From the IMG/VR virus record IMGVR_UViG_2675903366_000007: a stretch of DNA of 16,884 bases. One strand, given 5' to 3'. Under the pieces are notes generated by a model. The model did no database searches, had not been told where the DNA came from, and saw only the letters and a list, made by a program, of their open reading frames with translations. Source of the DNA: a virus (lineage: Duplodnaviria > Heunggongvirae > Uroviricota > Caudoviricetes). The position numbers were made by a program, and so were the translations under genes. This document shows positions 13,283 to 16,839 of this stretch, piece after piece (the first letter of the stretch is position 1; the number at the start of each line of letters is the position of its first letter).

Positions 13283-13332
13283 GCAATTTCAGNNNNNNNN
13301 NNNNNNNNNNNNNNNNNNNNNNNNNNNNNNNN
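13283..13332. other. Assembly gap (run of 50 N)
   Basis: 50 consecutive N characters; the true length of missing sequence is unknown. Confidence 0.98.
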
Positions 13333-13670
13333 ATGGCAGAATCAATGTGTTGGTGGTCCATCACACTCAACAAAATCACGCCTGAATTTCCACAAAGGAC
13401 TAAAGCACTCATGCGGGTAGTCTTTGCGAAGATAGATAACACGCTGTGTTTCTGGTTCCCAACGAATAACATGAACATAGAGCCCTCTTCCGTCACGAAA
13501 CCAGCGGTTAAGTTCCTGCACAACTCGCCCCCCACAGTCAGGTAAAGTTCTCTGTGGTTACTTACAGCCAGGTGATTTGGTAATCTGCATTCACGCCGTA
13601 ACAACAGGTGTTCAGCGGCACTGACCACCAGCTGTTGCGACAAACGGTTATTTGCCGTTAAACTGTTCAT
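13333..13670 (-). CDS. Hypothetical protein, 3' end lost in the gap
   Basis: ATG 13670 overlaps the stop of the upstream cII-like gene (ATGA). The frame stays open to the gap. Composition is unremarkable, so confidence is low. Confidence 0.3.
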
Positions 13671-14230
13671 GCGTTAGTTTCTCCACAGACACAAAACGCC
13701 ACGACGCCCGGAGCTGCACACTCGCGGGCGTCACTCTTTTCTGGAGCGCAAAAGATTTTGTAGACCAGTGCTGCATGCTCCTGGAGCTTCGAAATTGACA
13801 GATACAACTCATCATTAATTGCTGTCTGCTCATGTGGCTCCACTACCCCATCTTCGATTGCCGAACGAATCTGCTTTGAGTAACTCCCGATCTGTTCGAT
13901 GACTTCCAGCAGGCGCTGGTTTATATCGGCGTTCTCTACTTCCTCAATTTCAGGAAGCGATACAAACACCCCACCAGCAGACTGTGCGACAGCATCCGCA
14001 ATGTAGTGAGTGCCAGCCGCGCGCTGTAAAATCATTGCCCATCCCAACGGGAAAATCTGATCACCATCTGCACGAAGGCGGTTGAATAAAGCATTCTCTG
14101 TTACATCAAGCCAGTCAGCCGCTTCAGCGTAACCACCCGGCAACGCCGCGATAGTTTTTCTGACAGCTTTCACGTACCACTCAGGCTGTTTTTCTACTTT
14201 CCAGTGATGCTTACCCACGGTTAGCCTCAT
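13667..14230 (-). CDS. CII-like early regulatory protein (tentative)
   Basis: 187-aa ORF immediately downstream of cro. Sequence (...ALFNRLRADGDQIFPLGWAMILQRAAG...) resembles the phage CII regulatory family as I recall it. Assignment is by position and weak recollection. Confidence 0.45.
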   Translation of the reverse strand: MRLTVGKHHWKVEKQPEWYVKAVRKTIAALPGGYAEAADWLDVTENALFNRLRADGDQIFPLGWAMILQRAAGTHYIADAVAQSAGGVFVSLPEIEEVENADINQRLLEVIEQIGSYSKQIRSAIEDGVVEPHEQTAINDELYLSISKLQEHAALVYKIFCAPEKSDARECAAPGVVAFCVCGETNA

Positions 14231-14261: not shown

Positions 14262-14462
14262 TTAATCTTTCGGATAGATATCCGGTCTTAAGTCAGATTT
14301 CGTAATTGCACTTGACGTGCATTGCTCAAGTTTTTTAGCCAGCACAAAACTGGCTTTTTTATAACCATTGAAAACCAGCCGTAAGTAGCCAGGTGTTGAG
14401 CCAACTTTTCCGGCCAACTCGCCCTGCTGTTCTTTGGTTAAAGAGTCCCAATACGCTTTCAT
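14262..14462 (-). CDS. cro: Cro-like repressor (YdaS-type HTH)
   Basis: MKAYWDSLTKEQQGELAGKVGSTPGYLRLVFNGYKKASFVLAKKLEQCTSSAITKSDLRPDIYPKD (66 aa). GGAGGT 9 nt upstream of ATG 14462. Divergent from cI across a 90-bp operator region. Confidence 0.7.
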   Translation of the reverse strand: MKAYWDSLTKEQQGELAGKVGSTPGYLRLVFNGYKKASFVLAKKLEQCTSSAITKSDLRPDIYPKD

Positions 14463-14552: not shown

Positions 14553-15227
14553 ATGAAAACAATCCATGACATCCGGCGGTCTAACGCCAGAAAACTGAGA
14601 GATGGTGTTGGCGGAAATTCATCCTTTGCCACCATGATTGATCGCGAGCCTACCCAGACCAGCAGGTTTATGGGGGATGGCGCTACTAAAAATATCGGTG
14701 ACAGCATGGCACGGCACATCGAAAAATGTTTCGACCTGCCTGTCGGATGGCTTGATCAAGAACACCAGACAACGAACATCACAAAAAAACCTGATGTTTC
14801 AATCACTAATAAAAAAATAACGTTAGTCCCTGTCATATCATGGGTACAGGCCGGAGCATGGAAAGAAGTTGGCTATTCTGAGGTTGATTTGAGCACAACA
14901 GAAACGTATCCCTGCCCTGTACCCTGTGGCGAAATGACTTATATATTGAGGGTGATTGGTGATTCAATGATTGATGAGTACCGTCCGGGAGACATGATTT
15001 TTGTCGATCCAGAAGTACCAGCCTGCCACGGCGATGACGTTATTGCATTGATGCACGATACAGGTGAAACCACCTTCAAAAGGTTGATAGAAGACGGGAC
15101 ACAGCGTTATCTCAAAGCATTAAACCCCAACTGGCCTGAGCCTTACATTAAGATAAACGGTAATTGCTCTATCATTGGTACAGTTATTTTCTCAGGAAAA
15201 CCAAGAAGATACAAAATTAAAGCCTGA
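14553..15227 (+). CDS. cI: CI-type prophage repressor (HTH plus S24 LexA-like peptidase domain)
   Basis: 224-aa ORF. C-terminal VIGDSMIDEYRPGDMIFVD...TFKRL carries the Ser/Lys dyad context of S24 peptidases, with an Ala-Gly (WVQAGAW) in the linker. Confidence 0.88.
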   Translation: MKTIHDIRRSNARKLRDGVGGNSSFATMIDREPTQTSRFMGDGATKNIGDSMARHIEKCFDLPVGWLDQEHQTTNITKKPDVSITNKKITLVPVISWVQAGAWKEVGYSEVDLSTTETYPCPVPCGEMTYILRVIGDSMIDEYRPGDMIFVDPEVPACHGDDVIALMHDTGETTFKRLIEDGTQRYLKALNPNWPEPYIKINGNCSIIGTVIFSGKPRRYKIKA

Positions 15228-15241
15228 TCAATGTCTATGAA

Positions 15242-15262
15242 CCTGCTTCGGCAGGTTTTTTT
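15242..15262 (+). terminator. Intrinsic terminator immediately downstream of cI
   Basis: CCTGC-TTCG-GCAGG hairpin (15242..15255) followed by a T run of seven (15256..15262). Confidence 0.7.
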
Positions 15263-15266
15263 ATAC

Positions 15267-15304
15267 TTGACAATGTACCCTGTAGGTACATAATGTACCT
15301 ACAT
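15267..15304 (+). promoter_or_regulatory. pL-like promoter with overlapping OL-type operators
   Basis: TTGACA (15267..15272), 16-bp spacer, CATAAT (15289..15294). The spacer is the operator palindrome TGTACC-N5-GGTACA (15274..15290), and a second palindrome ATGTACCTACAT lies at 15293..15304. Confidence 0.5.
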
Positions 15305-15369
15305 AAGATATCGAACAGGCAGGACGCCCACGAAGTAGCCGTCCGGGGCATACGAAGACCGGAATGATT

Positions 15370-15398
15370 CGTAAATAAAAAAGCGCCCAAATGGACGC
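15370..15398 (-). terminator. Intrinsic terminator for the small minus-strand ORF
   Basis: On the minus-strand RNA, GCGUCCA and UGGGCGC form a stem with one G-U pair, followed by UUUUUUAUUU. The terminator lies 25 nt past the ORF stop. Confidence 0.55.
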
Positions 15399-15422
15399 TT
15401 CACTTTTGAACTGGATTTATAA

Positions 15423-15632
15423 TCAATTATTTTCTTCATAAATGTTTTGTAATGTATTTATGAGATTTGGTATTTCTTTTATGGGAAAAGAATATATTGG
15501 ACTTTCGATAATTTTATCAGATTCAAATGGTGGTTGTTTGCAGGACAGTTGAACTATAACTGAATTATGATCTTTAACTGGCACACAGTACCAACCACAT
15601 ACATCAAAAACAGGAGTATTTTGATTATCCAT
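15423..15632 (-). CDS. Small hypothetical protein (69 aa) in an AT-rich island
   Basis: MDNQNTPVFDVCGWYCVPVKDHNSVIVQLSCKQPPFESDKIIESPIYSFPIKEIPNLINTLQNIYEENN. GAGGA SD 5 nt upstream of ATG 15632, with its own downstream terminator and an AT-rich upstream region. Confidence 0.5.
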   Translation of the reverse strand: MDNQNTPVFDVCGWYCVPVKDHNSVIVQLSCKQPPFESDKIIESPIYSFPIKEIPNLINTLQNIYEENN

Positions 15633-16293
15633 TATGTCCTCGACAACTAAAAACACTGCGTACAAAACTCAAAAGCAGGGAGTTATTTATAAAATTTCAT
15701 AAAGAATAATTACCGATAGCGACAATTCATTGTTCTTGAATTTTGAAAAATAGCAAGACAAAACAATGTAAACTTATTTAAAAAAACTTCTTATTATGTA
15801 AACAAAACAACCAATTCGTTATATAGGAAAAACAAATAGTACACAAGAAAATATTCAACAGGGGTATTACATTCAACCATAAGAGTAATCGTCTCTTTGG
15901 TAACTAATACCGAACATTTTATTGTAACACGGCGTATGGCACATGCGTCGTTAGCGGTCTGGGGACGTTAAAGGGGACAATCCACTCCTTGCTCGGGCAA
16001 ACAAACCAGGTAGCCGGAATGTGCAAGTCAATGATGATGCTGATAAGACGCCTAACCAGCGTGGCGATCCGGTTTGACGCCTGGGAAGAGACCAGGGTGC
16101 AACGATGAGGGTATTTATGGAGCCGCGACAAAGTGTGGTGCCGTAACTGGCTAAGTGCTCTCAGCGTTGTGGTAATCCGCGAAATGGCGCGGCGGTAAGT
16201 ATGGCGGGGTTACTCTTTCCCCGTTGAGGACACCGGATTGTCAGGTTGACCATACGCCTGAGTGACAACCCCACCACAACAGCCACTGCTTTG

Positions 16294-16345
16294 GCGGTAC
16301 CAGTTTGTACACTTGCTTCCGGCTGGTACCGCTCTTTTTACAAAA
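16294..16345 (+). terminator. Hairpin plus U-tract (terminator or attenuator-like) upstream of the 16477 gene
   Basis: 10-bp inverted repeat GCGGTACCAG (16294..16303) and CTGGTACCGC (16323..16332) around a 19-nt loop, followed by TCTTTTTAC. Confidence 0.3.
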
Positions 16346-16476
16346 CAGAGAAGAGCATCACCGGACGACGGGCTCATAACCCAATCCATCCGGGCGGCAG
16401 CCACCGCAGGTGTTCTTCTCTGTTTTGTGGAGAAACTAATCGGCCTTGCAGGGTCGATATGATGAGGAGCAGCAAA

Positions 16477-16839
16477 ATGGCTAGCGAACGCAGTACTGAT
16501 GTGCAGGCATTTATCGGGGAGCTGGACGGCGGCGTATTTGAAACCAAAATCGGCGCAGTTCTCAGTGAAGTCGCTTCCGGTGTGATGAACACGAAAACCA
16601 AAGGTAAGGTCTCACTCAACCTGGAAATCGAACCATTTGATGAGAACCGTGTGAAAATCAAACACAAACTCTCATATGTTCGCCCGACTAACCGCGGGAA
16701 AATTTCCGAAGAAGACACTACCGAAACGCCGATGTATGTCAATCGCGGTGGTCGCCTGACTATTCTGCAGGAAGACCAGGGACAGTTACTGACTCTTGCC
16801 GGTGAACCTGACGGAAAACTCCGCGCAGCAGGTCGTTAA
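16477..16839 (+). CDS. Hypothetical protein (120 aa), first gene of the leftward (pL-side) early region
   Basis: MASERSTDVQAFIGELDGGVFETKIGAVLSEVASGVMNTKTKGKVSLNLEIEPF... GAGGAG 9 nt upstream of ATG 16477. The long track ORF from 16246 is an upstream extension without support. Confidence 0.55.
   Translation: MASERSTDVQAFIGELDGGVFETKIGAVLSEVASGVMNTKTKGKVSLNLEIEPFDENRVKIKHKLSYVRPTNRGKISEEDTTETPMYVNRGGRLTILQEDQGQLLTLAGEPDGKLRAAGR

Follow-up and report, generated by a model that had tools for sequence, protein, structure and literature searches.

The stretch of viral DNA analysed here, IMG/VR record IMGVR_UViG_2675903366_000007 (Caudoviricetes), comprises 16,884 nucleotides and is referred to in its full length as the window. 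A lambdoid prophage of the e14/SfV type has its immunity region at the right end of this stretch, where a cI-like repressor gene (ymfK), a pL-like promoter and a structured leader RNA are followed by an AT-rich island and then by the conserved leader of yfdP (Table 1). The island carries an open reading frame (ORF) of 69 codons that is oriented against pL and would form, together with an AT-rich promoter region, a Shine-Dalgarno sequence and an intrinsic terminator, an autonomous cassette. As judged from comparisons via intermediate sequences, the encoded protein is a remote member of the BssS/YceP superfamily. We consider it most likely that the cassette is a moron that resides in a recombination-prone slot, is expressed in the lysogen and modulates host physiology.

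An earlier note on the window, drawn up from the nucleotide sequence alone, had described this island as its most AT-rich part and as the site of a small gene with its own Shine-Dalgarno sequence and terminator, antisense to the pL-like promoter and encoding three cysteines, and all of these features are indeed present. The island (15412-15921) has a GC content of 28.2% as compared with 49.6% for the whole window. The lowest values of the window are reached in the 200-nt windows over 15401-15900 (27-33% GC), and single lines of 60 nt go down to 18.3% (15420-15479), 21.7% (15780-15839) and 25% (15720-15779). The product of the 69-codon ORF is an acidic (pI 4.4), soluble protein of 8 kDa with cysteines at residues 12, 16 and 31. 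RefSeq holds the identical 210-nt coding sequence as WP_021559686.1 under the label 'hypothetical protein'. A longer version of 80 residues starting with TTG was rejected, because a diverged variant of the gene has an in-frame stop five codons upstream of the ATG; this variant features GGAGGG at the position of the Shine-Dalgarno sequence. The terminator folds with -13.3 kcal/mol (z -3.6) on the minus strand as compared with -7.7 kcal/mol and a poor U-tract on the plus strand, and it ends 6 nt short of the leader RNA in the leftward direction, i.e., toward pL and cI. Upstream of the ORF, the best candidate for a -10 element is TATAAA at 15691-15686, within the region presumed to contain the promoter. 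A repeat search found neither direct nor inverted repeats flanking the island, and insertion as a transposon was rejected as terminal repeats and a target duplication are lacking.

Table 1. Features in the immunity region at the right end of the window
Feature	Position	Strand	Remarks
ymfL, CII-like	13667-14230	minus	Pfam Phage_CP76
Cro/YdaS-like gene	14262-14462	minus	
ymfK, LexA/S24-type, cI-like repressor	14553-15227	plus	
ymfK terminator	15239-15258		
pL-like sigma-70 promoter	15267-15294	plus	TTGACA-16-CATAAT, 11/12 matches
Perfect palindrome	15281-15303		TGTAGGTACAT-A-ATGTACCTACA; 11+11 nt, 100% complementary; overlaps the -10 hexamer
Structured leader RNA, 64 nt	15310-15373	plus	P1 15310-15315/15368-15373; P2 15342-15346/15359-15363
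Cassette intrinsic terminator	15401-15370	minus	Hairpin 15401-15380 (9 pairs), then T-tract TTTTTTATTT; terminator scan
69-aa ORF	15423-15632	minus	ATG start; divergent BssS-family protein without the family's C-terminal tail
Shine-Dalgarno sequence GAGGA	15641-15637	minus	4 nt 5' of the ATG; read from sequence
AT-rich 5' region of the cassette	15633-15915	minus	28% GC, promoter presumed inside; cassette alignment
Conserved non-coding leader 5' of yfdP, right border of the slot	15916-16476	plus	About 560 nt
Terminator hairpin in the yfdP leader	16293-16332	plus	13 bp, then CUCUUUUU; -21.2 kcal/mol, z -4.1
yfdP, next plus-strand gene	16477-16839	plus	

When the island was shuffled with its dinucleotides preserved, ORFs of at least 69 codons starting with ATG arose in 96 of 2000 cases, and the length of the reading frame is, by itself, marginal evidence for a gene. 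Sequence comparison nevertheless identifies it as a genuine gene under purifying selection, because dN/dS amounts to 0.12 (dS about 1.0, dN 0.12) when the window ORF is compared with a 78%-identical copy, the IncF-plasmid variant, that occurs in unrelated contexts. Conservation in relatives, whose absence the earlier note had named among the things that would speak against its proposal, is observed. The ATG, a Shine-Dalgarno sequence, the length of 69 residues and the terminator are common to both diverged lineages, and diverged homology reaches about 110-150 nt upstream of the ATG. A word-indexed protein search returned only four clusters of close relatives, all of them from E. coli. One of these is the variant, which is 75-78% identical to the window ORF and found in quite different locations, i.e., on IncF plasmids and on chromosomes by an adhesin locus and also beside an insertion sequence (IS) element and hsdR. 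In the former case it is situated about 600 nt downstream of an hmwA-hmwC-DUF2919-GerE two-partner-secretion adhesin locus (L010, 6005-6214; also L006 and L138-L140), and this repeated proximity may point to a connection with adhesion or with the formation of biofilms.

The relationship with BssS was found via intermediates. Neither a profile search of PDB sequences with the ORF nor a structure search of BFVD yielded a significant match. When an HMM profile made of three sequences was run exhaustively against 1.84 billion representative proteins, it matched two metagenomic proteins of 84-85 residues, P0007 (E 7e-6) and P0010 (E 3e-4). P0007 reaches 31.6 bits with Pfam BssS (cut-off 27), and P0007, P0010 and canonical BssS all match phrog_10846. 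Upon comparison with hhalign, the ORF group aligns with P0007 plus P0010 (97.9%, E 4e-13) and the latter pair aligns with canonical BssS (95%). A further connection is provided by gp0037 of Salmonella phage F1055 (F1055_0037), which with 61.9 bits on the Pfam model is clearly a member of the BssS family and to which the window ORF is related in BLASTP with an E value of 2e-6, at about 35% identity in the N-terminal half only. When a test BssS profile was assembled from canonical members, F1055_0037, P0007 and P0010 and the ORF group was left out, the ORF scored 25.8 bits and hhalign aligned 62 of its 69 residues (96.3%, E 1.5e-9). The statement of the earlier note that the protein has no recognisable motif can therefore not be upheld.

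The hallmark residues of the BssS family are present in the ORF, namely GW in strand 1, a proline after strand 2 and I-x-x-L in the helix; residues G13, W14, P34, I58 and L61 are invariant in a family alignment of 44 sequences. AlphaFold2 run on this alignment gave a model with a pLDDT of 89.3, in which strands at residues 10-19, 24-32, 41-43 and 47-50 precede a helix at 51-68, a predicted fold that may resemble COMM-type modules, in which a beta-sheet is combined with a C-terminal helix and which are obligate dimers. A cysteine motif for metal binding or redox chemistry was rejected, as all three cysteines are substituted in the distant relatives P0007, P0010 and BssS. Like BssS/YceP (PF13991; E. 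coli b1060), the protein is small and soluble and has the same predicted order of four strands and a helix along with the GW motif, the proline after strand 2 and I-x-x-L. Unlike canonical BssS, with which it shares only 13-19% identical residues, it is missed by the models PF13991 (Pfam) and NF008958 (NCBIfam). Family members comprise about 83-86 residues and have a C-terminal SGD...H tail, whereas the ORF, just like its close variant, stops at residue 69 before this tail is reached. Moreover, it is borne by prophages and plasmids and has a GC content of 29%, whereas bssS is a core chromosomal gene. The phage proteins of phrog_10846, represented by F1055 gp0037, belong to the same superfamily and are encoded in the same slot and antisense to pL; the leader RNA is common to both loci, and the genes for gp0037 and the window ORF are at most a few hundred bases away from it. 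F1055 differs by a second gene in the cassette and by a ClpX-zinc-finger-like ORF between RNA and cassette. The latter ORF, gp0038 (L142, 2828-3013, minus strand), encodes 61 residues, and its C4 zinc finger of the ClpX type scores 40.4 bits with Pfam. Taken together, two known kinds, the lambdoid moron and the BssS-family protein, gain a new and divergent member here.

Within the family, phenotypes are known for chromosomal BssS only, which has been associated with biofilm formation, the handling of indole and autoinducer-2 (AI-2), induction under stress and colonisation resistance (PMC3646849, citing Domka et al., 2006). In E. coli K-12, the gene adjoins the SOS gene dinI (L014, 158-944). 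Homologues of dinI are common cargo of prophages, and the neighbourhood raises the question whether chromosomal bssS is itself of phage origin.

The surroundings of the cassette are those of a variable slot between conserved borders. The pL-like element is annotated as a promoter in phage Ayreon and conserved in e14, SfV and SfIV, and the palindrome overlapping its -10 hexamer is presumed, from its position, to be the OL operator. The same arrangement is found at 99.5% identity in E. coli 377323_2f in a prophage that further encodes, among other phage proteins, a Q-type antiterminator and an integrase. Farther to the left in the window, between a Rha-like gene and ymfL, there is a short masked run of N at about 13292-13333, which shows up as X in the translated ORFs. 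Apart from 15325-15915, Ayreon and the window are collinear, and Ayreon contains the same repressor, terminator and pL. It is 96% identical up to 15324 and 98% identical from 15916 on, i.e., in the yfdP leader, and about 40 nt replace about 590 nt in between. Because Ayreon has the flanks but no island, the island is an insertion. The earlier note had suspected a moron, i.e., a self-contained gene of foreign composition, and this is corroborated both by its absence from Ayreon and by a terminator that travels with the ORF, being kept with it on IncF plasmids and beside the IS/hsdR locus.

Not everything that seems to be inserted relative to Ayreon is cargo. The stretch 15305-15411 is conserved at about 81% in about 1,800 complete E. 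coli genomes, where it follows different repressors, and it forms the left border of the slot. The border consists of two parts, the structured RNA and then the minus-strand terminator. Such a terminator is present directly behind the RNA in 18 of 120 IMG/VR loci, and every listed one has an antisense ORF. When positions 15200-16480 were used as a query, some part of it matched 4777 of 5426 complete E. coli genomes, at least 80% was held by 30 and the island was present in 30; in phage records, the part that matches is 15922-16480. A tblastn comparison of the ORF with 50,697 phage records gave no match.

Other occupants of the slot are diverse. In e14 and SfV, it contains a forward ORF of 98-102 codons (ymfJ/orf33), while antisense ORFs encode a protein of 144 residues in SfIV (SfIV_36; L016, 2913-3347) and many IMG/VR contigs, a protein of 150-164 residues with two transmembrane helices in the E. 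coli 042 prophage and others, and a coiled-coil/zinc-ribbon protein of 163-165 residues with two CxxC pairs in further loci. The slot is empty in Ayreon and cdtI. At least three other antisense cargo families each reside behind the same reverse terminator (L016; L012, 3316-3795; L050, L074, L076 and L094). Three antisense representatives (144, 159 and 163 residues) had no significant match in Pfam or PADLOC. Of 199 loci in which the RNA core is followed by 600 nt or more of sequence, and in which ORFs within 3 kb were inspected, six have a BssS-family ORF, in all cases antisense and about 50-640 nt downstream of the motif. Besides the window, the six comprise F1055, which seems to have been sampled twice, Acerihabitans sp. 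and a further two contigs. The contig encoding P0007 (L137) lacks the leader RNA but has a cI/cro pair, and its BssS-like gene is likewise convergent with the operon on the repressor side.

The earlier note had also supposed that the insertion may have displaced or inactivated an N-type antiterminator, and it had advised a comparison with relatives having an intact N region. Taking as N-like a small protein with an arginine-rich N-terminus, we found no such gene downstream of pL in the window, Ayreon, e14, SfV, SfIV or the E. coli 042 prophage. As none of the relatives has an N-like gene at this position, displacement of N by the island is not supported. SfIV and Ayreon have been deposited as complete phage genomes, and we take both phages to be viable. 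The forward ORF orf33/YmfJ was rejected as an analogue of N: Pfam yields nothing above threshold for it, SfIV and Ayreon are devoid of it, and SfV orf33 lacks an arginine-rich N-terminus. Tempting as the opposite reading may be, these phages had no N gene to lose. Just as in lambda (nutL-N) and HK022 (putL), a conserved element is located directly downstream of pL in the window, but in contrast to lambda an N-like gene is missing from this phage group. The position of nutL is occupied by an intact, conserved and structured RNA that scores 85.6 bits with our covariance model R1.

This leader RNA starts about 10 nt after the predicted start of transcription from pL. Its core AGGCAGGACGCCCACGAAGUAGC (15317-15339) is invariant in the sequences collected, an invariance that is partly an artefact as they were gathered by exact-match search. 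In IMG/VR, the exact 21-nt core was found in more than 120 contigs, and a set with one genome per species contains it in 93 stretches; the genera in this set are Escherichia, Citrobacter, Enterobacter, Klebsiella, Yersinia, Serratia, Xenorhabdus, Photorhabdus, Pantoea, Erwinia, Pectobacterium and others. It was also encountered in the non-enterobacterial Chryseobacterium sp. 18061 (L169) and Pseudomonas lundensis I31 (L180), reflecting either contamination or real transfer. The helices are well supported by 102 distinct sequences: 95.3% of cells pair as compared with 71.8% in shuffles, 10 of 11 variable pairs show double changes, and sliding the partners brings the covariation score down from 0.564 to at most 0.13. 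Helix P1 exists in three versions (GCGAA/UUCGC, GUCAUC/GAUGAC and CCACC/GGUGG). Model R1 detects a single copy each in the window, e14, the E. coli 042 prophage, SfV, SfIV, F1055 and plasmid pCFSAN083827_2, none in Ayreon and, at E<=10, none in HK022 (24-31 kb) or the whole of HK639. A second copy near pR was not found. Rfam has no match at the leader RNA, be it at the gathering threshold or at E<=10, and a full-text literature search for the core sequence retrieved no relevant paper.

HK022-type put RNA offers a parallel, as it is likewise structured, about 70 nt long and located just downstream of pL. Identity with HK022 put was rejected, since neither blastn-short nor the covariance model reveals any similarity, and the annotated putL-like RNA of HK639 is unrelated in sequence to the leader RNA of the window. 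For put RNA, read-through of terminators is described as depending on the zinc-binding domain of the RNA polymerase beta-prime subunit (PMC9378689). The leader RNA described here is a candidate put-like or nut-like element. Given the strong plus-strand terminator within the yfdP leader, early-left transcription must pass at least one good terminator, which renders processive antitermination by the RNA plausible. Against a firm link between RNA and terminator stands Ayreon, which keeps this terminator yet lacks the RNA. A well-supported, unannotated RNA at the nutL position may eventually matter more than the ORF.

How could the cassette work? The slot would be bounded by the pL-proximal leader RNA on one side and by the conserved leader of the yfdP operon on the other. 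In the lysogen, the YmfK-type repressor would keep pL off, and the convergent cassette could be transcribed, using a promoter of its own. In enterobacteria, AT-rich foreign DNA is known to be silenced, and with its 28% GC the cassette is probably modulated by H-NS. At a distance of 6 nt from the leader RNA, and short of pL and cI, the transcript would be halted by the terminator, which would insulate the immunity region. The protein, probably a small oligomer, may alter the behaviour of the host by protein-protein contacts, in analogy to chromosomal BssS with its influence on biofilm formation, motility and signal uptake. Upon induction, head-on transcription from pL should shut the cassette off and cover it with antisense RNA. 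Lambdoid morons, reportedly described by Juhala and co-workers in 2000 and exemplified by bor and lom of lambda and gp15 of HK97, possess their own promoter and terminator and a deviant base composition and are expressed in the lysogen. The island is similar in that it is present or absent between otherwise adjacent sequences, has its own terminator and deviates in GC content, whereas its promoter and its expression in the lysogen are presumed. It differs in being located inside the untranslated pL leader, convergent with pL.

A number of observations weigh against a lysogen-expressed modulator of the BssS type. A promoter scan 5' of the ORF with a threshold of 9/12 hexamer matches revealed no sigma-70 site. 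The ORF has no match at E<=1 in Pfam, NCBIfam or PADLOC-DB 2.0 (0 families), its best hit in PHROGs, phrog_10846, has an unusable E value of 0.31, and when the profile of the ORF group is compared directly with canonical BssS the result is not significant (E 0.1-0.14). As the SGD...H tail is missing, the protein may not act like BssS. To our knowledge, BssS has no established biochemical mechanism, so that a statement such as 'works like BssS' predicts a phenotype only. Furthermore, frameshifted, truncated or IS-cut copies exist (P0004, P0005 and P0025), and the other cargo families of the slot could equally indicate phage defence.

It is conceivable, albeit unlikely, that the protein serves superinfection exclusion, anti-phage defence or anti-defence and, through binding to a target protein, blocks an incoming phage or a defence of the host. 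The slot does hold cargo of the kind expected in lysogens, including the two-transmembrane and zinc-ribbon proteins, and inhibitors are typically small acidic proteins. On the other hand, PADLOC recognizes neither the ORF nor the three other cargo proteins scanned, the search of BFVD gave nothing significant, the variant is associated with an adhesin island and not with phage genes, and the phenotypes known for the family concern biofilm and signalling. We regard as improbable that the cassette is part of the phage switch, with either the convergent unit or the protein tuning pL, the repressor or induction. Such a role would fit the orientation of the BssS-family genes at this site, which without exception run against pL and follow the leader RNA at a short distance, the proximity of terminator and RNA (6 nt), the BssS-family gene beside the cI/cro pair in L137 and the location of chromosomal bssS beside dinI. 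However, the related and apparently viable phages Ayreon, SfIV and SfV have an unrelated gene or no gene at all in the slot, and the same ORF is under purifying selection away from any immunity region.

Decay is another explanation to be weighed. The ORF would then be a silenced hitch-hiker, a truncated remnant of BssS type that is repressed by H-NS and functionless in this prophage. Low GC content (28%), the lack of a consensus promoter, a protein about 15 residues shorter than is usual in the family, the existence of frameshifted copies and the rarity among complete E. coli genomes (30 of 5426) are all compatible with this. Yet a dN/dS of 0.12 at a dS of about 1, the retention of ATG, Shine-Dalgarno sequence, terminator and a length of 69 residues across two diverged lineages and a confidently folded structure model make decay very improbable. 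A chance ORF in AT-rich spacer DNA deserves hardly any credence: its length may be unexceptional, as seen in the 96 of 2000 shuffles, but homologues in at least four contexts, purifying selection and clear family ties speak against chance, and both the dN/dS value and the comparison with the BssS profile refute it.

We therefore return to the moron carrying a BssS-family gene. BssS is a widely used 'biofilm marker' gene without a known biochemical mechanism, and divergent members of its family recur as insulated antisense cargo behind pL in temperate phages of Escherichia, Salmonella and Acerihabitans, and also next to an adhesin island on IncF plasmids. This recurrence hints at a role in lysogeny-linked reprogramming of the host, and lysogens with and without the cassette represent a genetic handle on the BssS family. 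A much broader view is rather unlikely in our opinion, namely that the pL-proximal slot is purpose-built and insulated for lysogen cassettes, that the RNA belongs to a new host-directed class and that BssS proteins are primarily lysogeny factors that come to occupy the slot again and again, with chromosomal bssS being a domesticated descendant. In such a setting, the RNA with its 21-nt core invariant across Enterobacterales may act as a processive antiterminator that is unlike HK022 put in sequence.

Parts of the locus also occur on plasmids. An E. coli IncFIB plasmid contains a prophage fragment that matches 15287-16486, i.e., from pL through RNA and cassette to the leader, with 90% identity. 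On pCFSAN083827_2 (L009, 6968-8185), the -10 element of pL, the RNA, a BssS-like cassette and the yfdP leader are situated amid IS21 and IS256 elements and an excisionase gene; a repressor gene is not annotated near the fragment in the gene table, which is incomplete. Finally, conjugative Salmonella plasmids of 144 kb (H91-H106) match the island alone (15320-15925), with 94% identity.

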